A stretch of DNA of 64,000 nucleotides from an uncultured Planctomycetia bacterium (GTDB taxonomy: Bacteria > Omnitrophota > Gorgyraeia > Tantalellales > Tantalellaceae), in the NCBI GenBank assembly GCA_964527765.1, contig CAZGQR010000004.1, forward strand, positions 83 through 64,082, written 5' to 3'. Position 1 is the stretch's first letter, and every line of letters starts with the position of its first letter. Made by a program: the position numbers and the translations under genes. Below, in pieces: positions 2,626 through 64,000 of this stretch. The notes beneath the pieces are model-generated. The model worked only from the letters and a program-made list of their open reading frames with translations. It was not told the origin of the DNA and did not search any database.

Positions 2626-3882
2626 ATGAACATGAAAAGACTAAAGTGGCTATACCCGGGGATGCTGATCAAGCGGTGGATATCTCTTTCCGTTTTCGGT
2701 ATCCTCATGATCTCGATGGGGTTTGTCATAGTTATTTCCGAACGTAACCCCGAGAACAAGGCCATAGCGGGCCTTATCATCATTCTGGGGATCCTGTGCG
2801 TGATAATCGCCGTGAAAAGGATACTGAAATCCTTCATGACGGTCCTGATGCCGGAACCGGAAATGGTCAAAAATACCCTGGTAGACAAGGTGTACGCGAA
2901 ACGCATATTAGAAAAAGGTCCGAAGATAGTCGTGATCGGAGGGGGAACAGGCCTTTCCACGCTTCTGACGGGATTGAAACAAAAGACCAGTAATATCACC
3001 GCGATAGTGACGGTAGCGGATGACGGCGGGTCTTCAGGGCGGCTGCGCGAGGAATACGGAGTGCTGCCTCCGGGAGATATACGGAACTGTCTTGTGGCGC
3101 TTGCGGATTCGGAAGACCTTCTCGGGGCGCTTTTTCAGTTCCGCTTTAAGGAAGGAAAAGCGCTGCAGGGCCATAATTTCGGCAATATTTTTATCACGGC
3201 CCTTTCCAAGATCACGGGGGATTTTGCCAAGGCCATCAAGGAGTCCAGCAAGGTCCTTGCTATCAGGGGAAATGTGTTCCCGGCTACCCTGGAGAAGGTC
3301 AAACTGGTGGCGAGAAGAGAGAACGGGAAAGAGACGGTCGGAGAATGCCATATACGCGAAGAAAAGAGCAGTCCCATAGACTGGCTTTTCCTAAGGCCGA
3401 ACGAGTGCAAAGCAACGCAGGAATCAGTGGAAGCCATACGTCAGGCGGATGCGATCGTTCTGGGCCCGGGCAGCCTGTATACCAGCGTGATGCCGAACCT
3501 TCTCATAGAAGGGATACAGAGGGAGATCATGAGATCCAGGGCTATCAAGATCTATATTTGCAATGTCATGACCGAGGCGGGGGAAACGGACGATTATTCG
3601 GTAAGCGACCATGTCAAGGCCATCATAAAGCATACCCGTCCGGGCGTGATAGATTATTGCATAGCAAATGTCATGCGCATCCCAAAAGACCTTTATGAAA
3701 AATATAAGCTTGAAGACAAGTTCCCGGTGAAGTTAAATGAAAATGACGAGAGATGGTTCAGGCAGGAAAAGATAACACTGGTAAAGGCGCATATCGCCAG
3801 CATGAAGGAATTCGTCAGGCATGATTCATTAAAGCTGAGCGATACGATCATGGATATCCTGAATGAGAGCAGGAGAAGGTGA
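2626..3882 (+). CDS. yvcK: YvcK/CofD-family gluconeogenesis factor with an N-terminal extension of about 90 aa carrying two TM helices
   Basis: Core KIVVIGGGTGLSTLL....TVADDGGSSGRLR is diagnostic of the UPF0052/YvcK family. Upstream are two hydrophobic helices (ISLSVFGILMISMGFVIVI and AIAGLIIILGILCVIIAV). A later Met at about 2836 would give a conventional soluble protein. Confidence 0.8.
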   Translation: MNMKRLKWLYPGMLIKRWISLSVFGILMISMGFVIVISERNPENKAIAGLIIILGILCVIIAVKRILKSFMTVLMPEPEMVKNTLVDKVYAKRILEKGPKIVVIGGGTGLSTLLTGLKQKTSNITAIVTVADDGGSSGRLREEYGVLPPGDIRNCLVALADSEDLLGALFQFRFKEGKALQGHNFGNIFITALSKITGDFAKAIKESSKVLAIRGNVFPATLEKVKLVARRENGKETVGECHIREEKSSPIDWLFLRPNECKATQESVEAIRQADAIVLGPGSLYTSVMPNLLIEGIQREIMRSRAIKIYICNVMTEAGETDDYSVSDHVKAIIKHTRPGVIDYCIANVMRIPKDLYEKYKLEDKFPVKLNENDERWFRQEKITLVKAHIASMKEFVRHDSLKLSDTIMDILNESRRR

Positions 3883-3889
3883 AGTCCGG

Positions 3890-5923
3890 ATGGTAAAGAA
3901 GACGAAATTCGCAATGGCGTTTCACTGCTATCAGCCCGTGTTCAACTTTGAGCGGGAGATCGAGCGCGCTTTTAAAAACGCTTATTTGCCTCTCTTGAGG
4001 TCCCTGGAAGAATTTCCCGGGGTCAAGGCTTCATTCCATTATTCCGGGAATATGCTGGAATGGTTTGAACGCAGGCACCCGGCCTATATAGAGAGACTGA
4101 AAAAACTGATGCGGCGCAAGCAGATAGAGATCATGGGGGGCGGTTGTTTTGAGCCGGTCATGGCGCTTATCCCGGAACAGGACAGGAAAGAACAGCTGGA
4201 GATGAACGAGGAGATCATCTCAAGGATCTTCGGAATAAAGCCTGACGGCGCGTGGATCGCGGAAAGGGTCTGGGAGCCGGCCCTGGCCGACACCCTGCAC
4301 GATGCGGGCATTAAATATACCATCGTCGATGACCATCATATGCTGAAGGCCGGCGTGAAAGAAGAGAATATCTTCGGCCCCTGTCTTACGCGGGGCAAGA
4401 ACGGTTCGGTGATATTGTTCCCCTCACTGACGAGCCTGAGATACTTGATACCGTTCCGCTCGCCGAAGGACATACTGGGCCGCATTAAAGAGATCGCGGA
4501 GAAGAACCGCGAGGATACGACATGTGTCTTTTTCGCCGACGACGGCGAAAAATTCGGGGCATGGCCGTATACGTACCAATGGGTCCACAAGAAAGGATGG
4601 TTACGGGATTTTTTCCGTGCCCTGGAAGAAAATGCCGACTGGCTTCAGACCGCGACATATTCCGAGATCATGAACACCGTTTCGGCGAAGGAGGTCGGTG
4701 ATATCCCGGAATCCAGTTATGTCGAAATGATGAAATGGAGCGGCGGGAATTTTAAGAATTTTCTGAAAAAATATCCTGAAGCGGGCCAAATGCATAAGAG
4801 GATGGTCTCCGTCAGCGATATGATCAGGGAGATGGAATCCGGGGATGCCGGTTTTGCCGGTGATACCAGGATCCAGGAGGCAAAAAAAGAACTGTTCAAG
4901 GCTCAGGCCGGCTGCGCCTACTGGCACGGGACGTTCGGAGGACTTTATCTTCCGCATCTTCGGTCAGGGGTGTACAGACACCTGATAAAGGCGCGGAACG
5001 CTGTTGACACGCTCCGCGGCGGCGATGATAAGCGAGTGAGATATGTTGAGCACGATCTCGGGGAGTCAAGACGCGAGGTCGTGATCGAGAACAAGCTTAT
5101 CGATCTTTTTGTAAAACCCGCCCTGGGCGGAGGGATAAGCGAACTGGATTACAGGCCCCTGGACATAAATCTGATGAACACCATGTCCCGGGCAAGGGAA
5201 GACTACCATAAAAAACTCGAGAAAAATTATTCCGTGCGGGTGATGGAGGCAAGAAAAGCGATACTTCGCGGGAATTTTACCGATATCCATGACGTGCTGG
5301 GGGTCGGGGAGAGGGGATTGCGAAAGGCATTGTATTACGACGATTACCAGCGGAACTCTTTTCTCACGCATGTTTTCAGCGGCAGGAAGCCGTGGAAAGA
5401 GATGCGCAAAACGCGCACGAGCCATGACGGATTTTTAAGGGAGATGTACGGGTCGCGCGTGGAAACGGGAAAAGAATCCGTCACCCACACGCTTTCAAGG
5501 AGGGACAGGATCCTTGCGGGCAGCGGAGGGCCGCTTGATCTTGAGGTGATCAAGAGAATAACGGTAGGTTCGGAGCCGGCCGTCACGTTCACGCATAAAA
5601 TACTGAAACATTCCGGCGGGCCGGCTATTTTAAGGTACGCCGTGGAATTCAACTTCCTGATATGGGACAGGACGGTCATGTCGGGGCCGGTCTTGACGGA
5701 GACAGACCATTTTTCACTGAAGGACAGATATTCGGATGTGGGCTTGCGGTTTTTTCTCGACGGGAAGTTCACGGTTTTCATGTATCCGATCCATACCATT
5801 AATGAGACCGAAAGCGGCCTTAAGAAGATGTTCCAGGGGGTGTCGGTGCTGATAGGGGATGAATACGACCCCGATGGTGACAGCACTACAGATGATATGA
5901 AGATAACAATGACTGTCGGGTGA
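3890..5923 (+). CDS. Glycoside hydrolase family 57 protein (alpha-amylase / 4-alpha-glucanotransferase / branching-enzyme-like)
   Basis: N-terminal AFHCYQPVF motif (the GH57 HQP signature) plus the conserved EIMGG / WIAERVWEP region. Start placed at the ATG at 3890 behind SD GGAGAAGGTGA. The longer listed ORF from 3863 overlaps the yvcK stop. Confidence 0.75.
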   Translation: MVKKTKFAMAFHCYQPVFNFEREIERAFKNAYLPLLRSLEEFPGVKASFHYSGNMLEWFERRHPAYIERLKKLMRRKQIEIMGGGCFEPVMALIPEQDRKEQLEMNEEIISRIFGIKPDGAWIAERVWEPALADTLHDAGIKYTIVDDHHMLKAGVKEENIFGPCLTRGKNGSVILFPSLTSLRYLIPFRSPKDILGRIKEIAEKNREDTTCVFFADDGEKFGAWPYTYQWVHKKGWLRDFFRALEENADWLQTATYSEIMNTVSAKEVGDIPESSYVEMMKWSGGNFKNFLKKYPEAGQMHKRMVSVSDMIREMESGDAGFAGDTRIQEAKKELFKAQAGCAYWHGTFGGLYLPHLRSGVYRHLIKARNAVDTLRGGDDKRVRYVEHDLGESRREVVIENKLIDLFVKPALGGGISELDYRPLDINLMNTMSRAREDYHKKLEKNYSVRVMEARKAILRGNFTDIHDVLGVGERGLRKALYYDDYQRNSFLTHVFSGRKPWKEMRKTRTSHDGFLREMYGSRVETGKESVTHTLSRRDRILAGSGGPLDLEVIKRITVGSEPAVTFTHKILKHSGGPAILRYAVEFNFLIWDRTVMSGPVLTETDHFSLKDRYSDVGLRFFLDGKFTVFMYPIHTINETESGLKKMFQGVSVLIGDEYDPDGDSTTDDMKITMTVG

Positions 5924-14468: not shown

Positions 14469-15140
14469 TTATAAGGTTCTTGCCAGCGTGAACCCCGATA
14501 CCTCTCTTGCTCCGGCGCGGAGCAGTTCCGCGGCGCATGCGTTGAGCGTGGCTCCCGTCGTAACTATATCATCCACCAGCATTACGGATCTTCCTGTGAG
14601 CCGCAGACGTTCGGTGACGGTAAAGGAATTCTTCAGGTTATTGATCCGGCTTTTCCCTGAAAGGCCGATCTGAGGCGCGGTGTTCTTTGTTTTGACGAGG
14701 ATAGAGAATGAGACCGGGGACGAGAGCCGTTCGGATATTACGCCCGAGATAAGTTCCGACTGGTTGTATCCCCTTGAAAAACGCCGGTTCGGATGGATAG
14801 GGACAGGAATGACCAGATCGACGGGGGCGGGCAGGGTCCTGCTCCCGTCGAAGTATTTGCGGATCATATCTTCAAAGACCGGTAACAGCTGCTGTTTTCC
14901 GCAGTATTTAAATTTTTTTATGCATTCTCTTACCGGACCTTCATAGGGGCGGCAGGACCATATTTTGTTAAGGTGCTCCAATGACCGGACCGGGGGAGGG
15001 TCCCCGGACAGGATCAGGTCTTTACACCCCCGGCATATCGGCAGGGGATAAGTAGCCGGCCTTTCACCGCACGCGATGCAATCGGAAGGCAATAATATAC
15101 TTATACACGACTGCAGTATTTGTACCGTTTGGGATTTCAA
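14469..15140 (-). CDS. comF: ComF-family phosphoribosyltransferase (competence protein F-like); 5' end uncertain
   Basis: N-terminal paired CxxC zinc ribbon (CIACG....CRGCKD) and C-terminal PRTase motif VMLVDDIVTTGATL. The listed ORF extends to 15245 through the RAYT 3' end and a REP copy. The only in-frame start candidate before the zinc ribbon is a TTG at 15138-15140. Confidence 0.65.
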   Translation of the reverse strand: MKSQTVQILQSCISILLPSDCIACGERPATYPLPICRGCKDLILSGDPPPVRSLEHLNKIWSCRPYEGPVRECIKKFKYCGKQQLLPVFEDMIRKYFDGSRTLPAPVDLVIPVPIHPNRRFSRGYNQSELISGVISERLSSPVSFSILVKTKNTAPQIGLSGKSRINNLKNSFTVTERLRLTGRSVMLVDDIVTTGATLNACAAELLRAGAREVSGFTLARTL

Positions 15141-15679
15141 GATTGCAAGTGTCCCCTTTTTTGTTCTATGAAAGTGTCCCCTAATGGGATAAAAGAACAA
15201 TCCATTTTCATCGGGTCTAAAATGTGTCTTTTTGATAATAGACACCGTTCTCTATAGCTGCTCCATTTATAGTCCGCGGGATCGTTGACTATACTGGCTC
15301 TTACGGGATTATTTTCAATATAAGTGGCGGCATTTACCAGGTAACGTCCTTTTATGATAGGGTGGTTTTTGAAGCGCCCCTGCCACAGATGTCCGACCTT
15401 TTGGTATTTAGTATTATGATATTCCGTATAACCACGGGTAAGCCAGTGCATCAATTTGGATATATTTTTAGATATATTCGCTTCTATTAGTAGATGAACA
15501 TGATTTGGCATAAGGCAATAGGCATATAGCATGATTTCGTATTTTCGTTTTGCCTTTTTAAGCGTGTGAATGTATTTTTCATAGTCCTCGTCGAGAAAGA
15601 ACACCTCTTGTTTTTGATTACCTCGAGTTGTAATATGGTAGCAGGCACAATCAATAAAGATCCTTGAGCTTCTTGGCAT
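15137..15679 (-). CDS. REP-associated tyrosine transposase (RAYT, IS200/IS605-like HuH Y1 transposase)
   Basis: MPRSSRIF..YHITTRG N-terminus, HVHLL (HuH) motif and C-terminal catalytic Tyr context DYKWSSYRE. Start trimmed to the conserved MPR.. Met (listed ORF starts 3 codons earlier at 15688). Confidence 0.8.
   Translation of the reverse strand: MPRSSRIFIDCACYHITTRGNQKQEVFFLDEDYEKYIHTLKKAKRKYEIMLYAYCLMPNHVHLLIEANISKNISKLMHWLTRGYTEYHNTKYQKVGHLWQGRFKNHPIIKGRYLVNAATYIENNPVRASIVNDPADYKWSSYRERCLLSKRHILDPMKMDCSFIPLGDTFIEQKRGHLQS
15147..15181. repeat. REP copies (2x AAGTGTCCCC = reverse complement of GGGGACACTT)
   Basis: 15147-15156 and 15172-15181, inverted relative to the copies at 15742-15779. 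Confidence 0.6.
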
Positions 15680-15741
15680 AAAAATCACCTCTTACTACTA
15701 TAGACAACTTTTATCGTAAAATTGTTTCAAAAAATATTGCA

Positions 15742-15779
15742 GGGGGACAGTTTCACCCTTAAAAAGGGGGACACTTTGG
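15742..15779. repeat. REP copies (GGGGGACAGTTTCACCC and GGGGGACACTTTGG)
   Basis: G-rich REP-like motifs upstream of the RAYT gene. The same GGGGACACTTTG motif recurs at 63978-63989. Confidence 0.6.
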
Positions 15780-15957
15780 AGTTTAAATCCCCAAACGGTA
15801 CAAGATGGGGATAGACACCGGGTGAGGGCGGATTCTTTCACCCTGTCGAAAATCCCGTTATAGCCTTTTCCGAGAGGGTTCGCCCTGAATTGTCTTGATT
15901 TTATGTCTTAATAAGTTAAAATAAACCTGAGCGTCGATTTACGCGGGAGCGTTACCT

Positions 15958-24246: not shown

Positions 24247-24858
24247 GTGAAAAAGATTTCAGTTATCGTGTTTATGGTGAGCATGTCGCTGGTATTTTTA
24301 TTTCCGTGCGAAGGAAAATGTCAGGTAAAAAAGAATCTTTACAGCATGATGAGCGACGCAAAAGAGGTCAAGGTATATGTCGCTGAAGTGATCGATTCTT
24401 CCGGCCAGGCGGCGGATATACGGGTTTCTCTTAGAAAGAGCATCGAAGACGCACTGGCTACGAGGATGACCATAAATTTTGTGCCGGTTTCCAGCGAAAA
24501 TAACGCCGATGTAGTCATTACCTGTGATATTATCGAAAGAATATGGATGAAGGAAGACCCGTTGGACCAGATACACGGCATCGGCCCGGCTGCCATGGAT
24601 ATCGCCATGTCCGAGAATTACGCCCGCATGCGGGCTGTTTTTGCAGTGGAAAGAGGGGGGAAGAAAGTCATCCTTAAGGGGTTGAGGCGGTTCTTCAGGA
24701 GAAGCAATGTCATATGGAAACAGGAGCTCCAGGCCACTATTACTAAAAAAGTTATGCCCGAAAAGGAAAGTATACCCCTTTTGGAGGACCGTATCGTTCA
24801 GGTTTTCATGCGCAAGTGTTTCAGTAAAAACGCCCAATCACTAAGCACAGTATATTAG
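24247..24858 (+). CDS. Hypothetical secreted protein or lipoprotein
   Basis: GTG start behind GAGAGGAG. N-terminal signal peptide VKKISVIVFMVSMSLVFLFPC. No recognisable domain. Confidence 0.45.
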   Translation: MKKISVIVFMVSMSLVFLFPCEGKCQVKKNLYSMMSDAKEVKVYVAEVIDSSGQAADIRVSLRKSIEDALATRMTINFVPVSSENNADVVITCDIIERIWMKEDPLDQIHGIGPAAMDIAMSENYARMRAVFAVERGGKKVILKGLRRFFRRSNVIWKQELQATITKKVMPEKESIPLLEDRIVQVFMRKCFSKNAQSLSTVY

Positions 24859-24904
24859 GGACGTTTTTCAAATTAAACCCAGACCGTAAGAAAATGTGAA
24901 CTTG

Positions 24905-24987
24905 GACCTGTCCCCGCGGTCAATCCTAGACCTGTCCCCAAGGTCGATCCTAGACCTGTCCCCATAGCCAATCTTAGACTTGTTCCC
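24905..24987. repeat. Tandem REP array, four copies of TAGACCTGTCCCC (the last degenerate)
   Basis: Copies at 24905-24915, 24927-24939, 24951-24963 and 24975-24987, spaced about 24 bp apart. Inverted counterparts lie at 25538-25576. Confidence 0.65.
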
Positions 24988-24993
24988 GATATT

Positions 24994-25473
24994 TTAAATT
25001 TTAAACTTATCCAAAATGTTATTTTTCTTATCTAAAACTCTGAATTTGTAGCTACACCAAGAATAATCTTCGGCCCTTTTACAGATATTAGCCCTAATTG
25101 GATTATACTCAATATATGAGATTATATTGATCAGATATTCGTCATTTTGAACCAGGAAGCTTTTATATCGATTTTGCCATAAGTGGCCACATTTATTGTA
25201 CTTGAAGTTATAGTATTGAGCATAAGATAAGTTTATTCTATGCATAATGTGTTTCAATGTTCCGGGTTTTATGGGGTTGATGAGTAAGTGCACATGATTC
25301 GGCATCAGGCAATAGGCATAGACTTTTACGCGGAATTTGCTTTTATATTTCCATAAGATGTGAAGATAGCGTTCAAAATCAGCACGCTCGAGGAAAACAT
25401 CTTCTTTACGAATACCCCGAGTGATTACATGGTAAGAAGAACTTTCAAAAAGAATTCTAGCAGTTCTGGCCAT
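24994..25473 (-). CDS. REP-associated tyrosine transposase (RAYT, IS200/IS605-like Y1 transposase), second copy
   Basis: MARTARILFESSSYHVITRG N-terminus, HVHLL HuH motif, C-terminal DYSWCSYKF catalytic Tyr context. About 50% identical to the copy at 15137-15679. Start trimmed to the conserved Met (listed ORF extends to 25524). Confidence 0.8.
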   Translation of the reverse strand: MARTARILFESSSYHVITRGIRKEDVFLERADFERYLHILWKYKSKFRVKVYAYCLMPNHVHLLINPIKPGTLKHIMHRINLSYAQYYNFKYNKCGHLWQNRYKSFLVQNDEYLINIISYIEYNPIRANICKRAEDYSWCSYKFRVLDKKNNILDKFKI

Positions 25474-25537
25474 AATTTCACCTCCTACCATTATTAGACG
25501 CAAAAAAGCGGGAAATTCTTTCAAAAAAATTAAAAAA

Positions 25538-25576
25538 GGGGACAGGTCTAGGATCGACCTTGGGGACAGGTCTGGG
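25538..25576. repeat. REP copies (2x GGGGACAGGTCT)
   Basis: Reverse complement of the TAGACCTGTCCCC copies at 24905-24987. Confidence 0.65.
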
Positions 25577-25619
25577 ATTAAAATTATTTACGGTCTGGGA
25601 ACAAAATGAGAAACGTCCC

Positions 25620-25648
25620 TTGACTTTTTGGGTTTTGTCGGGTAATAT
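25620..25648 (+). promoter_or_regulatory. sigma70-like promoter of clpB (TTGACT - 17 nt - TAATAT)
   Basis: -35 at 25620-25625 and -10 at 25643-25648, about 80 nt upstream of the clpB ATG. It immediately abuts the right inverted repeat of RAYT-REP unit 2. Confidence 0.45.
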
Positions 25649-25726
25649 ATAGATAGATGTAAATATGTCTATATGATGACTTATTTCTGTCATTTAAGGT
25701 GTTAATGTATCAGGAGGATAAGAGTC

Positions 25727-39211: not shown

Positions 39212-41047
39212 ATGCGCAGAATTTTTATTTTTACAGCTATATTCTTTCTGATAGCCGTTTCCTCCTTGGCGCAGGAAGAAAGGTTCGAGGCGAGCCTTGA
39301 GATGAACAGGGCCTCCGTGGGGAACCCGCTGTATCTTTATCTTACTTTCCACGGCAGTCAGGATATAACCCGTCCGGATGTATCTTCCGTGGAAGGGTTA
39401 CGGATAAAATATGTGGGACCGTCTACGAAGATGCTGGTTGTCAACGGCAAGATATCCCGGTCCATTACGCACATGTACCTTGTCATCCCGCTTAAAAGCG
39501 GGCAGTTCGCGATAGGTCCGTTCTTTGCCGAATATCAGGGTCAGACGTATAAGGCTGACGCCGTGACACTGACCGTCAGCGATCTGCCGTCCCGGACCGC
39601 GCAGACCGGACCTTCCCCGGCGCCGTCACCCCCCGTTACCGGGCCACCGAAGGAAGCTCCTTACGTCGGTGACAGGATCTTCCTCACGATGGACGTAGAC
39701 AAGAAACTGGTATATATAAACGAGCCCGTTCTTGCCACCATAAAAGTATACGTGGACGGAATAGGGCTGAAAGACATCGAGTACCCCTCTTACCCGCACG
39801 AAGGGTTCTCAGCCGCAGAATTTTTTGAGCCGGAGAGACACCGGGAGTCGGTGCGCGGCTCCAGGTACGACGTTCTTGTTTTCAGGCAGAATCTTTTTGC
39901 CATCAAGGAAGGGGATTATGTCCTGGGACCGGCGACATTGCGCTGTAAAATGGTGGTAAGGAAGCGGACCACGCGGCGCGCCTCACTTTTCGGCAGCAGT
40001 GTCTTTGATGATGATTTTTTCAGCAGCAGGTTCGGTCACGATGTCTATCCTATCGAACTTGAATCGGTGGAGATCCCGATCAGTATTTTGCCGTTCCCGG
40101 AGAAAGGCCGGCCGTCGGATTTTCAGGGAGCGGTGGGAGATTTTGACATGGATGTCAGTGTCCGCCCGGCGAAAGTGAAGATCGGGGATCCCGTTACACT
40201 TCGCATGACCATAACCGGCCGCGGAAACCTTGACACGGTCACAGTGCCGCGCCTCGCTTCCACCGAAGAGTTCAAGACGTATGAGCCGCAGGTCACGAAG
40301 AAAGGCGGAGAAAAAATATACGAGCAGATACTCATCCCGAAGACCGACGAGGCAAAAGAGATCCCGGAAGTTTCTTTCAGCTTTTTCAATCCTTCGTCCG
40401 AAAAGTACAAGACCATACGTAAAGGGCCGTTTCCCGTGGAGGTGGTAAAGCAGCCCGAAGCTGAGCGTACGGTCAAGATGGTCTCCATGCCCGGGGTGGA
40501 GCAGATGTTCTATCCCAAGGAAAAGATCGGCAAGGATATAATCCATATAAAAGAGAACATAGGAAGATTGCGGCGCAGGGGCCGTTTTTTGTACCAAAGC
40601 TGGCTGTTCTGGCTCGGACAGCTTATTCCTTTTGCGTTTTTGTGCGTTTTTTATGTCAGCCACAGAAAAAACGAACGGATACGCAGGGATAAAGGGTATG
40701 CCCGCTTTTTAAAGGCGCCGAGAAAAGCGCGAAACGGCCTGGCCAGGGCAAAGTCATATCTGGGCAGGAACGATTTTCCCCCGTTCTATGATACGGTATT
40801 TAAGACGCTTCAGGAATATCTTGGAGACAGGTTCAACCTCCCCAGAGGCAGTGTTACCGGTCAGGTCATCGAGGACCGTCTCCGTCCCGCCGGATGCAGC
40901 GAGAAAATACTGGAAATGCTGCAGGAAGTATTTTCCCGGTGCGAAATGGCGAGATACGCTTCTTCTGTCCCCGGGGGACATGAGGCGAAAGAGACGCTGG
41001 AGAAGGTCAAGAGGATAATCGATTATCTGGAGAAGGTGAAATTATGA
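39212..41047 (+). CDS. batD: BatD-like oxygen-tolerance protein
   Basis: 611 aa. N-terminal signal peptide, large periplasmic beta-rich region, C-terminal TM (LFWLGQLIPFAFLCVFYV) and cytoplasmic tail, as in BatD. Confidence 0.65.
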   Translation: MRRIFIFTAIFFLIAVSSLAQEERFEASLEMNRASVGNPLYLYLTFHGSQDITRPDVSSVEGLRIKYVGPSTKMLVVNGKISRSITHMYLVIPLKSGQFAIGPFFAEYQGQTYKADAVTLTVSDLPSRTAQTGPSPAPSPPVTGPPKEAPYVGDRIFLTMDVDKKLVYINEPVLATIKVYVDGIGLKDIEYPSYPHEGFSAAEFFEPERHRESVRGSRYDVLVFRQNLFAIKEGDYVLGPATLRCKMVVRKRTTRRASLFGSSVFDDDFFSSRFGHDVYPIELESVEIPISILPFPEKGRPSDFQGAVGDFDMDVSVRPAKVKIGDPVTLRMTITGRGNLDTVTVPRLASTEEFKTYEPQVTKKGGEKIYEQILIPKTDEAKEIPEVSFSFFNPSSEKYKTIRKGPFPVEVVKQPEAERTVKMVSMPGVEQMFYPKEKIGKDIIHIKENIGRLRRRGRFLYQSWLFWLGQLIPFAFLCVFYVSHRKNERIRRDKGYARFLKAPRKARNGLARAKSYLGRNDFPPFYDTVFKTLQEYLGDRFNLPRGSVTGQVIEDRLRPAGCSEKILEMLQEVFSRCEMARYASSVPGGHEAKETLEKVKRIIDYLEKVKL

Positions 41048-59626: not shown

Positions 59627-59704
59627 GTTTGATCTGCGCAAACCGCTTACTGTTTCCCGATAATCTTATCCGGGTAGTTTCAGGGACGTTTTAAGGGGGG
59701 AGAT

Positions 59705-62644: not shown

Positions 62645-63973
62645 ATGAAAAAAGAACGGCCGAAACTGCTTGTCGCGGATAAAAAGGGCAGGATCCGCGA
62701 CGTGCCCTATCTTGAAGCGACGGGCATGAAGGGCGGGGAATATTTCCGTCTGGATCCCGGGAATCTCGTGAAACTGCATCCGGACAGCGAGTTTTTCATG
62801 CTTCCGGACAGAAGACCGGTGGGTTATGACCCCCAAGCCGGACGATTCGTCCAGCTGGAACATGAGCCCTTTGCCGGGCGAAGTGAACCCGCCCGCGCGG
62901 TGGCGGCTTTTCTCCCGCCCGGATACACGGTGACGCACAGCGCTTCGTACCACGAACGCGGGAGAGCCCGGATATTGCCGCTTTTCAGCTATGCGGCAGT
63001 GGCTTTTTACAGGAACGGGTTTTATGCTGCCGGCGTGCGCGTTGACCGGGAAAAGCGCCAGGAACTTAAAGGTATGAACGCCGGGGAGCTCCGGAAGAAC
63101 GTCAGGTTGTTCAGGAAACTTTTTCCGAAGAACAGGCTTGTGCGGCATCTTGAAACATGCGCTCTTACTTACGGGTGCCCGGCAGCCAAGAATTTTTTCC
63201 TTAAAAGATATGAGGGCCCGCTTCCGATATCACCGGCGTGCAACGCCAGGTGTATAGGGTGCATATCCTATCAGCCCGGGAAAGAATGTTTTGTCACGCA
63301 GCCGCGCATTACTTTTGTCCCCGCGCCGGAGGAAGTCGCGGAAGTCGCGCTTTTTCACCTGAAAGAGGTCCGGGACCCCGTTGTGAGTTTCGGTCAGGGG
63401 TGCGAGGGGGAACCGCTCATGGCGGGGGAGGTTCTGGAAAAAGCGGTGAGAATGATAAGAAGATCCACCTCAAAAGGCATCGTCAATCTCAATACCAACG
63501 CGAGTCGCCCCGACATTGTCCGCCGGCTTTTCGAAGAAGGGCTGGATTCCATGCGCGTGAGCGTGAACAGCGTCCGCGAATCCTGCTATTCGGATTACTA
63601 CCTGCCGCGCGGGTACGGTTTTCGGGATGTCCTGAGGTCGATAAACAGCGCCAAGAAGGCAGGCGGGTTCGTTTCGATCAACTATCTTGTCATGCCGGGT
63701 TTTACGGATTCCCGAGAGGAGGCCGGGGCACTGCTGTGTTTTCTGAAAAGAACAGGAGTCGACATGGTCCAGTGGCGGAACCTGAATTACGATCCCTTGG
63801 CTTATTTCAGGAAGTTGCGCACCCCGGTAAAACGGGAGGACATGGTCGGAGTGGATACTCTTGTCAGGATGGTCGAGAAGGAATGTCCGCATGTCATGAA
63901 GGGGTACTTTAACCCGTCGAAAGAGCGCATGAAACGGGCAGAGAAAAAATTGGAGGGACACCTTCAAGCTTAA
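62645..63973 (+). CDS. Radical SAM domain protein with an N-terminal extension of about 190 aa and no assigned function
   Basis: CNARCIGC (CxxxCxxC) at aa about 197-204 and a downstream GQGCEGEPL glycine-rich SAM-binding-like motif. 442 aa. Confidence 0.65.
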   Translation: MKKERPKLLVADKKGRIRDVPYLEATGMKGGEYFRLDPGNLVKLHPDSEFFMLPDRRPVGYDPQAGRFVQLEHEPFAGRSEPARAVAAFLPPGYTVTHSASYHERGRARILPLFSYAAVAFYRNGFYAAGVRVDREKRQELKGMNAGELRKNVRLFRKLFPKNRLVRHLETCALTYGCPAAKNFFLKRYEGPLPISPACNARCIGCISYQPGKECFVTQPRITFVPAPEEVAEVALFHLKEVRDPVVSFGQGCEGEPLMAGEVLEKAVRMIRRSTSKGIVNLNTNASRPDIVRRLFEEGLDSMRVSVNSVRESCYSDYYLPRGYGFRDVLRSINSAKKAGGFVSINYLVMPGFTDSREEAGALLCFLKRTGVDMVQWRNLNYDPLAYFRKLRTPVKREDMVGVDTLVRMVEKECPHVMKGYFNPSKERMKRAEKKLEGHLQA

Positions 63974-63977
63974 AAAA

Positions 63978-63989
63978 GGGGACACTTTG
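63978..63989. repeat. REP copy (GGGGACACTTTG) at the 3' window edge
   Basis: Identical core to the REP at 15766-15779 (AAAAAGGGGGACACTTTGG versus AAAAAAGGGGACACTTTGC). Suggests a third REP/RAYT unit begins just beyond the window. Confidence 0.5.
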
Positions 63990-64000
63990 CCGATTAATAT

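Follow-up and report, generated by a model that had tools for sequence, protein, structure and literature searches.

Genes of the RAYT/TIRYT type are widespread, but little is understood of what they do in bacteria other than E. coli and Pseudomonas; in the TIR-associated branch, the mobilisation of the flanking repeats is itself in doubt. IS200/IS605 elements carry asymmetric subterminal hairpins and no long inverted arms, are usually present in several copies and often include a tnpB gene. The TIR-associated tyrosine transposases, described as TIRtrons or TIRYTs (Di Nocera et al. 2013, PMC3733652), belong mostly to the TnpA_Y1 subclass 2.1 (Quentin et al. 2018, PMC6006769). REPIN populations comprise hundreds of copies per genome, and their RAYTs are vertically inherited at stable sites (PMC5581495).

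The locus described here lies in a 64,000-nt stretch of a Candidatus Omnitrophota genome (the window), where one transposase gene bracketed by inverted repeat arms occupies positions 24857-25620 (unit 2). We consider it likely that unit 2 is a single-copy element of the RAYT/TIRYT type, in which a Y1 (HUH) gene and its own 5' region are enclosed by two inverted substrate arms. Unit 2 falls within a known class, of which it is an ordinary example. Within a phylum that has yet to be cultivated, it and its relatives show transposase clades cleanly matched to arm types, gene-less derivatives in which the two different ends are both retained, orthologous sites that lack the element, and sub-repeat numbers that vary between strains.

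Architecture and transposase of unit 2

What the first-pass annotation described for unit 2 was confirmed at the positions given there. The unit is composed of the following features.

24857-24987, plus strand: left arm, lying beyond the stop codon of the transposase gene, with the outer terminus AGGGACGTTTTTC (24857-24869), the conserved box CCCAGACCGTAA (24878-24889) and sub-repeats ending GACCTGTCCCC, three of them good (24902-24915, 24925-24939 and 24949-24963) and one degenerate (24973-24987); defined from the sequence, repeat families D1 and I1-I3, and arm alignment A5.
24994-25473, minus strand: RAYT-type HUH/Y1 tyrosine transposase gene (RAYT2), 159 aa; assigned from Pfam, NCBIfam, alignment A1, PDB profile and fold.
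25474-25537, minus strand: the 5' region of RAYT2 inside the element, with the Shine-Dalgarno sequence GGAGGTG (25479-25485) and the box CGTCTAAT (25493-25500); defined from the sequence and a flank comparison across loci.
25538-25620, minus strand: right arm, upstream of the transposase start, with two sub-repeats (25538-25552 and 25562-25576), the box GACCGTAAA (25587-25599) and the outer terminus AGGGACGTTTCTC in the minus-strand reading (25608-25620); defined from the sequence, repeat families and arm alignment.

The inverted arms (24857-24939 and 25538-25620) are 83 nt each and 78% complementary, and contain a 42-nt core that is 98% complementary. Each arm begins with the outer terminus AGGGACGTTT, followed by direct sub-repeats that are copies of AGACCTGTCCCC spaced 24 nt; the good copies on the left end at 24915, 24939 and 24963, and the two on the right stand at 25538 and 25562. 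Another strain has three sub-repeats in the right arm (copy-number variant L166), and L165 shows an assembly break. The exact sequence GGGGACAGGTCT occurs four times in the 64 kb, every time within the unit 2 arms, while at up to two mismatches 13 matches are found versus 4.1 expected, a number reached in 0 of 100 shuffles. The core GGGGACAG agrees with GGGGWSAS, the motif published for the TIR-associated tyrosine transposases (PMC3733652). A lone copy of the 10-mer AGGGACGTTT at 59682, without sub-repeats, was taken as chance, a TGTCCCC/GGGGACA palindrome at 40966-40980 was set aside as it lies inside a coding sequence, and an Rfam RNA family identity was rejected, with just two matches, both far under the gathering scores.

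Single unit 2 arms fold no better than shuffled sequences (z from +0.2 to +1.4) and so do not qualify as palindromes of the classical REP kind. Of 5 variable positions, only 1-3 pair between the outer and inner half of each arm. In a classical REP, a palindrome of 20-40 nt with GT[AG]G at its 5' foot folds into a stable hairpin; unit 2 lacks both the foot and a stable single-arm hairpin. Five junction pairs show no evident target-site duplication. Rather than GTAG REP hairpins, the repeats form TIR-like arms in which sub-repeats are arranged in tandem. Neither are they a CRISPR array, as the first-pass annotation had correctly stated: CRISPR direct repeats measure 23-50 nt, share one orientation, alternate with unique spacers of similar length and usually lie close to cas genes, while here the core is 12-15 nt, the period is 24 nt, the copies have opposite orientations around the transposase gene, and there is no cas gene nearby.

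The arms of homologous elements are 37/38, 61 or 84 nt long and fold into hairpins closed by GGGAC/GTCCC, the basic arm being an imperfect palindrome of 37-38 nt (GGGAC-R-N5, a loop of ~13 nt, N5-Y-GTCCCC). Their variable stem bases co-vary, with 3.25 vs 2.06 Watson-Crick pairs, a value reached by 17 of 10,000 permutations. The arms of 61 and 84 nt would have arisen by duplication of one half plus the loop (24 nt), which would explain the 24-nt spacing of the sub-repeats. In a strict count of GGGGWSAS at 81 homologue loci an overall orientation signal is absent (34 expected vs 43 control), and the inward arrangement is found only in the Omnitrophota-type relatives.

The RAYT2 reading frame, preceded by its Shine-Dalgarno sequence, matches Y1_Tnp (E=4e-18) as the only Pfam domain, and no additional domain appears in the predicted model. 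H60-V-H62 forms the HUH motif, and Y120 corresponds in the alignment to Y115 of E. coli TnpA_REP (4ER8); both the motif and the tyrosine are invariant across the 23 homologues of alignment A1. Almost every Omnitrophota homologue has the box CGTCTAAT upstream, in the form CGTCTAWT. The NCBIfam model REP_Tyr_transpos gives RAYT2 71 bits, under its curated cut-off of 80, and the unit 1 protein 87.5 bits. The PDB profile search with RAYT2 retrieves TnpA_REP (4ER8) with E=5e-8 vs 2e-3 for ISDra2. The AlphaFold model (pLDDT 86) matches 4ER8 over its full length (TM 0.74 over 160 columns, at ~14% sequence identity) and IS608 with TM 0.52-0.56 over ~117 columns. Judged by profile and predicted fold, RAYT2 is nearer to E. 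coli TnpA_REP, a RAYT, than to the IS200/IS608 transposases. The proposal that a RAYT-type Y1 transposase gene stands here with cognate inverted repeats on both sides is thus upheld by Pfam, NCBIfam, PDB profile and fold.

Unit 2 could also be read as an ordinary autonomous insertion sequence of the IS200/IS605 family, copying only itself and having the flanking repeats merely as its ends. We regard this reading as improbable. It accounts for the Y1_Tnp domain, for the differing contexts in which close homologues stand in other genomes, and for the fact that close relatives lack units 1 and 2 at the orthologous sites, which a mobile insertion sequence would lead one to expect. However, RAYT2 obtains only 21 bits from the IS200 model of NCBIfam (cut-off 55) but 71 from the RAYT model, its fold matches that of TnpA_REP over the full length, and a tnpB gene is absent. 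Elements of this family have subterminal hairpins and lack long terminal inverted repeats (PMC6006769), whereas unit 2 has long arms. The element is found as one copy per population: the exact RAYT2 protein occurs in 12 contigs from several samples, with the reading frame intact and identical and in a single genomic context, and its 90%-identity cluster has no other member. The existence of gene-less two-arm derivatives and solo arms, described below, also speaks against an element that copies only itself. The best homologue among the GTDB representatives is 54% identical to RAYT2, and homologues are rare in plasmid records (33 of 72,556).

Two arm families and their dispersal

The window contains two further features of the same kind.

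15120-15803, minus strand: unit 1, a paralogous RAYT unit with a gene of 159 aa (15203-15679) and arms with TTGTACCGTTTGG as outer terminus and an inner core, AAGTGTCCCC, repeated every 24-25 nt.
63957-64000, plus strand: solo family-1 arm, cut by the window end and continuing in L085 (11306-11372).

The core of unit 1 is GGGGACACTT, and its GGGGACAC also agrees with the GGGGWSAS motif. In L085 the solo family-1 arm runs to the outer terminus CAAACGGTACAA, and it overlaps the final codons of a radical-SAM gene. The orthologous site of unit 1 is empty in the relative with 81% identical ClpB. The description of unit 2 as a second unit with a distinct arm family holds with respect to the arms, which are different, but the two transposases are 45% identical and not ~50% as first estimated.

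Genes of the RAYT2 clade (in the window, L169 and L124) have arms with GGGACG and AGACCT-GTCCC. For the RAYT1 clade, a CAAnnT-GTCCC core occurs together with the outer terminus GTACCG in L031 and in the window unit, and without it in L041. Since arm type tracks the transposase clade at these loci, there are indeed two cognate families. The idea of two RAYT/REP families in the first-pass annotation is therefore retained in that arm type follows the clade in other genomes, but its REP part is not, the arms being no GTAG REP hairpins.

Dispersal of family 2 is seen in contigs from one sister sample and in other metagenomes. Three gene-less derivatives of 187-258 bp in sister-sample contigs (L107, L119 and L157) have one left-type and one right-type arm each. 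When folded as single-stranded DNA, the 193-bp L119 reaches -46.6 kcal/mol (z -8.2) and L157 -39.7 kcal/mol (z -7.3). Solo family-2 arms are present in three other metagenome contigs (L128, L129 and L134), and this arm type stands also at unrelated sites beside unrelated genes. The derivative contigs are tied to the source only by an arm identity of 86-90% and by tetranucleotide correlations of 0.97, 0.93 and 0.90, which are not decisive next to 0.96 within the window and 0.91-0.94 for sister species. The metagenome pattern scan covered an incomplete collection that did not return the source contig itself, and its 76 matches are mostly unrelated high-GC repeats with GACCTGTCCCC in common. Further family-2 copies are known from sister-sample and other metagenome contigs only; in the source contig, ~84 kb (the 64-kb window and 10 kb on each side) contain no further family-2 arm.

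This lack of extra arms, together with the degenerate state of the intra-arm hairpins and of one inner sub-repeat, could point to a decayed relic, in which the gene and arms are kept by inertia only and mobilisation has ended. Such a relic appears unlikely to us, given the intact and identical reading frame in the 12 contigs from several samples, the retained catalytic residues, the 98% complementarity of the arms across 42 nt, the difference between strains in sub-repeat number, and an insertion younger than the split from the relative with 89% identical ClpB.

Insertion site and the clpB promoter

Unit 2 fills the space that separates a 203-aa gene, at its stop codon, from the -35 hexamer of clpB. 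The first bases of its left arm overlap the TAG stop codon (24856-24858) of the 203-aa gene, and its right arm adjoins the following feature.

25620-25674, plus strand: clpB promoter, a neighbour outside the element, with TTGACT (25620-25625), a 17-nt spacer, TAATAT (25643-25648) and an operator-like inverted repeat (25647-25674); defined from a promoter scan and an alignment to L167 and L168, relatives in which the site is empty.

The right repeat had been said to end exactly at the -35 element, which is correct to within 1 nt; the arm in fact overlaps the hexamer by one base, its last base T25620 being the first T of TTGACT. In the two empty-site relatives, with ClpB 89% and 81% identical, the gene order is kept and unit 2 is absent. 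Both have TTGACT, the 17-nt spacer, TAATAT and the downstream operator-like repeat essentially as in the window. Upstream of the -35, unit 2 takes the place of native sequence, a hairpin-containing spacer still present in the relatives, and its insertion postdates the split from the relative with 89% identical ClpB.

Because the relatives without the element keep the same promoter, unit 2 neither supplies nor shapes the clpB core promoter, which is older than the element and independent of it. The first-pass annotation had suggested that the insertion could influence heat-shock gene expression or supply part of this promoter, and had named an identical promoter in relatives lacking the element as the observation that would speak against it; this is what the comparison of the upstream regions revealed, and we abandon the suggestion. 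That the arm array is a host regulatory device supplying or modulating the clpB heat-shock promoter is very improbable: the right arm ends at most 1 nt from the -35 hexamer and replaces the native sequence upstream of it, but the promoter and operator-like repeat are essentially unchanged in relatives without the element and the same arm type occurs at unrelated sites by unrelated genes. Unit 2 may still affect clpB via the region upstream of the -35 or via read-through transcription. For annotation, the clpB promoter beside unit 2 is to be treated as native and element-independent, and arm arrays of this kind are not CRISPRs, break assemblies, can overlap stop codons and can mislead gene callers on start sites.

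Proposed mechanism and comparison with known systems

The unit 2 protein is predicted to be a single-strand DNA nuclease/ligase, for which the two inverted arms would be the recognition substrate. Each arm presents the outer terminus AGGGACGTTT and then 2-4 direct half-site copies ending AGACCTGTCCCC with a 23-24-nt period. When the DNA becomes single-stranded, the left and right arms could pair into a long imperfect hairpin that brings the two termini together, and the enzyme would cut and rejoin there. This reaction would move the whole unit or, in trans, gene-less two-arm derivatives. More speculatively, Omnitrophota might harbor a large undescribed clade of ~159-aa tyrosine transposases without the helix-turn-helix extension, which move as whole units, spawn left/right-asymmetric REPIN-like derivatives, change their arms by 24-nt half-palindrome duplications and prefer hairpin-containing spacers between stop codon and promoter. 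We put this forward as a tentative and rather doubtful generalization; if true, the clade would be a tractable natural model for the role of the enigmatic TIRYT branch in the RAYT superfamily.

Among known systems, the IS200/IS605 transposases (IS608, ISDra2) share with RAYT2 the HUH/Y1 catalytic core and the ferredoxin-like fold, but match it more weakly than TnpA_REP in both profile and fold. As in the REPIN-RAYT systems described for Pseudomonas by Bertels and Rainey (RAYT groups 2 and 3), a single-copy transposase is accompanied by gene-less two-armed derivatives that are predicted to form hairpins, and a genome can have two or more RAYTs, each paired with a repeat family of its own. In contrast to these systems, the arm density here is low, with at most one extra arm per ~84 kb, and both RAYT units are missing at the orthologous sites of close relatives.

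E. coli TnpA_REP, of RAYT group 2 (4ER8), is the best match of RAYT2 among solved structures by profile and full-length fold. The two proteins have the HUH motif, the catalytic tyrosine and a W-Q motif in common, and in both cases the gene lies between inverted copies of the substrate with one copy per genome. Unlike the E. coli REPtron, unit 2 has no GTAG tetranucleotide and no compact REP hairpin, and the GTAG-contacting residues E100, H101 and R104 of TnpA_REP correspond to S, F and Q in RAYT2 (residue roles from PMC6006769).

The published TIRYTs differ from unit 2 in their host phyla, Omnitrophota being the host here, and in their proteins: most are long and end in a helix-turn-helix extension at the C terminus (subclass 2.1), whereas RAYT2 has 159 aa, with a short RAYT-like tail following the Y1 core. 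No account of arms that combine a 37-nt palindrome with 24-nt half-unit duplications was found in the literature consulted. In their general organization, TIRtrons/TIRYTs resemble unit 2, with a RAYT-like Y1 gene between long inverted repeats that are not GTAG REPs; their repeats are also found alone, as dimers or in clusters, in moderate abundance, and the repeat core agrees with GGGGWSAS as it does in both units of the window (unit 2, GGGGACAG; unit 1, GGGGACAC).

The repeat-flanked transposase unit beside clpB

The element adjoining the clpB promoter (unit 2, family 2) is best supported as a single-copy RAYT/TIRYT-type unit. Its components and those of the paralogous unit 1 (family 1) are as follows.

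Features of the two units in the window
24857-24939 and 25538-25620: inverted arms of unit 2, 83 nt, 78% complementary (repeat finder)
ATG 25473, stop 24994-24996, minus strand: unit 2 transposase ORF (RAYT2), 159 aa
5 nt upstream of the RAYT2 ATG, minus strand: Shine-Dalgarno sequence GGAGGTG
15120-15803: unit 1, with a 159-aa gene at 15203-15679 and the core GGGGACACTT

The repeat finder also returned a 42-nt core inside the unit 2 arms that is 98% complementary, and direct copies on either side, spaced at exactly 24 nt. The exact sequence GGGGACAGGTCT occurs four times in the window, always within the unit 2 arms, and 13 times when up to two mismatches are allowed (4.1 expected), a count attained by no shuffle. 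Given the arms, these copies and a second unit with its own core, the pattern is not due to chance, and the RAYT unit with repeat arms that the first-pass annotation placed here is real. A listing of the RAYT2 ORF from a TTG start, at 176 aa, is an over-extension, since the homologues measure 156-160 aa and start with M-A/P-R. The two transposases share 45% identity.

The RAYT2 protein matches the Pfam family Y1_Tnp (E=4e-18). It scores 71 bits against the NCBIfam model for REP-associated tyrosine transposases, below the curated cut-off of 80 (unit 1 protein, 87.5 bits), and 21 bits against the IS200 model. A search with a 23-homologue profile, in which H60/H62 and Y120 are invariant, retrieved E. 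coli TnpA_REP (4ER8, E=5e-8) and ISDra2 TnpA (E=2e-3), with Y120 aligned to Y115 of 4ER8. The AlphaFold model (pLDDT 86) has its highest TM-score with 4ER8 (0.74 over 160 columns), with TM 0.50-0.56 over ~117 columns for IS608 and ISDra2. In the alignment, W94 and Q95 of TnpA_REP correspond to W99 and Q100 of RAYT2, whereas E100, H101 and R104, which contact GTAG (PMC6006769), are replaced by S, F and Q, consistent with arms that lack a GTAG tag. More than 600 homologues were found; among the best 120, nearly all with a name belong to Candidatus Omnitrophota, as do the closest named relatives of ClpB. Plasmid homologues are scarce (33 of 72,556 records, all <45% identity).

Arm architecture and its pairing with transposase clades

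Classical REP palindromes are ruled out as the identity of the unit 2 arms, because single arms fold no better than shuffled sequence. The arm design emerges when 80 loci from genomes, and others from metagenomes, are compared. In Omnitrophota homologues the arms are imperfect palindromes of 37-38 nt, (A)GGGAC-R-N5 / loop of ~13 nt / N5-Y-GTCCCC, whose loop frequently contains CAAAGC or CAATCG; other arms measure 61 or 84 nt, in which one or two duplications of 23-24 nt, each comprising one palindrome half plus loop, are added to the palindrome. Such arms fold with a stem closed by the GGGAC/GTCCC halves. The five variable stem positions form 3.25 Watson-Crick pairs within an arm versus 2.06 between loci, an excess matched in 17 of 10,000 permutations; as the loci are partly non-independent, this covariation lends modest support to the palindrome design.

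Unit 2 is the extreme form of this design: its arms combine a single outer half AGGGACGTTT with a conserved GACCGTAAA box and two to four inner halves AGACCTGTCCCC, and pairing of the outer half with the inner ones is weak (one to three of the five variable positions). The 24-nt spacing noted in the first-pass annotation is thus the period, one palindrome half plus loop, of this repeat class. Sub-repeat number varies with the strain: the right arm has three instead of two at the same locus in another sample (L166, ~470-585), and the contig of another assembly (L165) begins inside the array, at its positions 1-30. Copy number in the arrays is thus variable, and assemblies can break there.

A further shared motif, CGTCTAWT (window 25493-25500), precedes the Shine-Dalgarno sequence by a short, constant interval in nearly all homologues from Omnitrophota; in loci L005-L041 it stands about 20-30 nt before the transposase start, often with GTTAGAAA ~18 nt further upstream. 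The motif may serve as a common promoter, or the enzyme may recognise or cleave the DNA there.

The proposal of two transposase/repeat families is supported, each family being kept across genomes. RAYT2-like genes (window; L169, 68% identity; L124, 65%) go with GGGACG termini and AGACCT-GTCCC cores. The RAYT1 side is less uniform: window unit 1 and L031 (54%) have GTACCG termini and CAAnnT-GTCCC cores, L041 (62%) has the core but lacks the terminus, and in L020 (55%) neither was scored as present.

Insertion site and the clpB promoter

An identical ClpB is encoded in 16 contigs, all of which carry unit 2 or break inside it. Two relatives, L167 (ClpB 89% identical) and L168/L174 (81%), retain the gene order Lon, Na/H exchanger, 190/203-aa gene, ClpB, DnaJ, HTH gene and have no transposase gene at this locus. 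Upstream of clpB, both can be aligned to the window starting at the -35 hexamer, and both keep TTGACT, the spacing of 17 nt to TAATAT, and the ATATAGATAGAT-N4-ATATGTCTATAT inverted repeat. The alignment also matches the stop codon of the gene preceding clpB, and the 85-120 nt between it and the -35, which contain a strong hairpin in the relatives, are wholly replaced by unit 2 in the window. On this conservation in relatives without the element, the clpB core promoter (-35 onward) is native and independent of unit 2, although the element might still act through sequence upstream of the -35 or through read-through transcription. The earlier suggestion that the element could supply part of this promoter is thus refuted; the first-pass annotation had itself named the same promoter in related genomes without the element as the sign of independence, and this is what was found.

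The replaced spacer contains an 18-bp perfect stem TTAAATAAGTTATGTTCC...GGAACATAACTTATTTAA in L167 (~3820-3870) and a hairpin ACCCCCC...GGGGGGT in L168 (~3870-3900), neither followed by a clear T-run. In the clpB promoter of the window, the inverted repeat ATATAGATAGAT-GTAA-ATATGTCTATAT (25647-25674) overlaps both the -10 hexamer and the start region; it occurs once in the window, and three species share it. In every case a small ArsR/HTH_20-type gene (98-103 aa) comes after the clpB-dnaJ cluster, and this gene and the inverted repeat may constitute a lineage-specific heat-shock repressor and its operator.

The site of unit 1 is likewise empty in the 81% relative, and the 68%-identical RAYT2 homologue lies in another gene neighbourhood with the same arm design. 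From these comparisons, whole units have been gained, or have moved, over the time in which the species diverged.

Dispersed arms and relation to known RAYT systems

No family 2 arms were found outside unit 2 in the window or in the 10-kb extensions on both sides of the source contig. A single solo arm of family 1 sits at the window end (63957-64000) and continues in the flanking extension L085 (11306-11372), where both inner doublet and outer terminus are present; this arm overlaps the end of a radical-SAM gene (final codons and stop). The called start of the next gene (peptidase S11) falls inside this arm and is probably mis-called. In the left extension (L175, ~360-900) a putative tRNA gene cluster just outside the window edge lies in a 734-nt stretch without a called protein-coding gene; this stretch contains no arms.

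A metagenome scan with GACCTGTCCCC-N13-GACCTGTCC returned 76 loci, mostly unrelated high-GC repeats with a common core, one of which adjoins a 219-aa homologue. Family-2-type arms with the AGGGACGTTT terminus are present at eight of the 76, in three groups. Two Ga0180432 contigs from a sister sample carry gene-less two-armed elements of 258, 193 and 187 bp. These look like internal-deletion derivatives, because each retains one left-type (CAAATTRAAC) and one right-type arm (CATTTTGTTC) as in unit 2. The 193-bp and 187-bp elements form long hairpins as single-stranded DNA (z -8.2 and -7.3). The Ga0180432 contigs may or may not belong to the source organism: their tetranucleotide correlations with the window are 0.97, 0.93 and 0.90, where parts of the window compared with each other give 0.96 and sister species give 0.91-0.94. 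The L124 gene lies between arms of family-2 type. Solo arms were found in lower-GC contigs; one of 3.6 kb (L129, GC 43%) has two family-2-type and two family-1-type arms and is a second organism with both families together. Loci L090, L104 and L139 contain a different repeat type, tandem 12-nt GACCTGTCCCCC units beside repeated GAAGTTTTAACGAAGGGGG units.

The comparisons above establish the protein class, the arm anatomy, the derivatives, the match of arm type to clade, the empty sites and the independence of the promoter. The mechanism is proposed by analogy with TnpA_REP and IS608: with the DNA single-stranded, the arms would be the substrate on which the Y1 enzyme performs catalysis, pairing of left and right arms in a hairpin intermediate would bring the termini together, and the enzyme would then move the unit itself and, in trans, its gene-less derivatives.

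Elements of this kind are already known, and the chief value of unit 2 is that of a clean example in a phylum without cultivated members. Di Nocera et al. described RAYT-like genes bounded by long terminal inverted repeats that bear no relation to GTAG REPs, naming the units TIRtrons and their proteins TIRYTs; many of the repeats share GGGGWSAS, and solo, dimeric and clustered copies are moderately abundant (PMC3733652). This motif is matched by GGGGACAG in unit 2 and GGGGACAC in unit 1. Quentin et al. assigned most TIRYTs to subclass 2.1, whose members are long and extended at the C-terminus by a helix-turn-helix, and saw no REP-like hairpins in their surroundings (PMC6006769); unlike these, both window proteins lack the extension. 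High-GC soil contigs (L089, L094, L108, L120, L126, L127, L131) contain AAAAGGGACCTGTCCCCTTTT arrays with a 24-nt period, and the L108 array lies immediately upstream of the 219-aa RAYT homologue (33% identity), so longer and more distant members of the family share this core and its period. According to Bertels et al., high-copy flanking words occur only in RAYT groups 2 and 3, the remaining groups having about a dozen copies (PMC5581495); the low repeat density of the window agrees with the latter.
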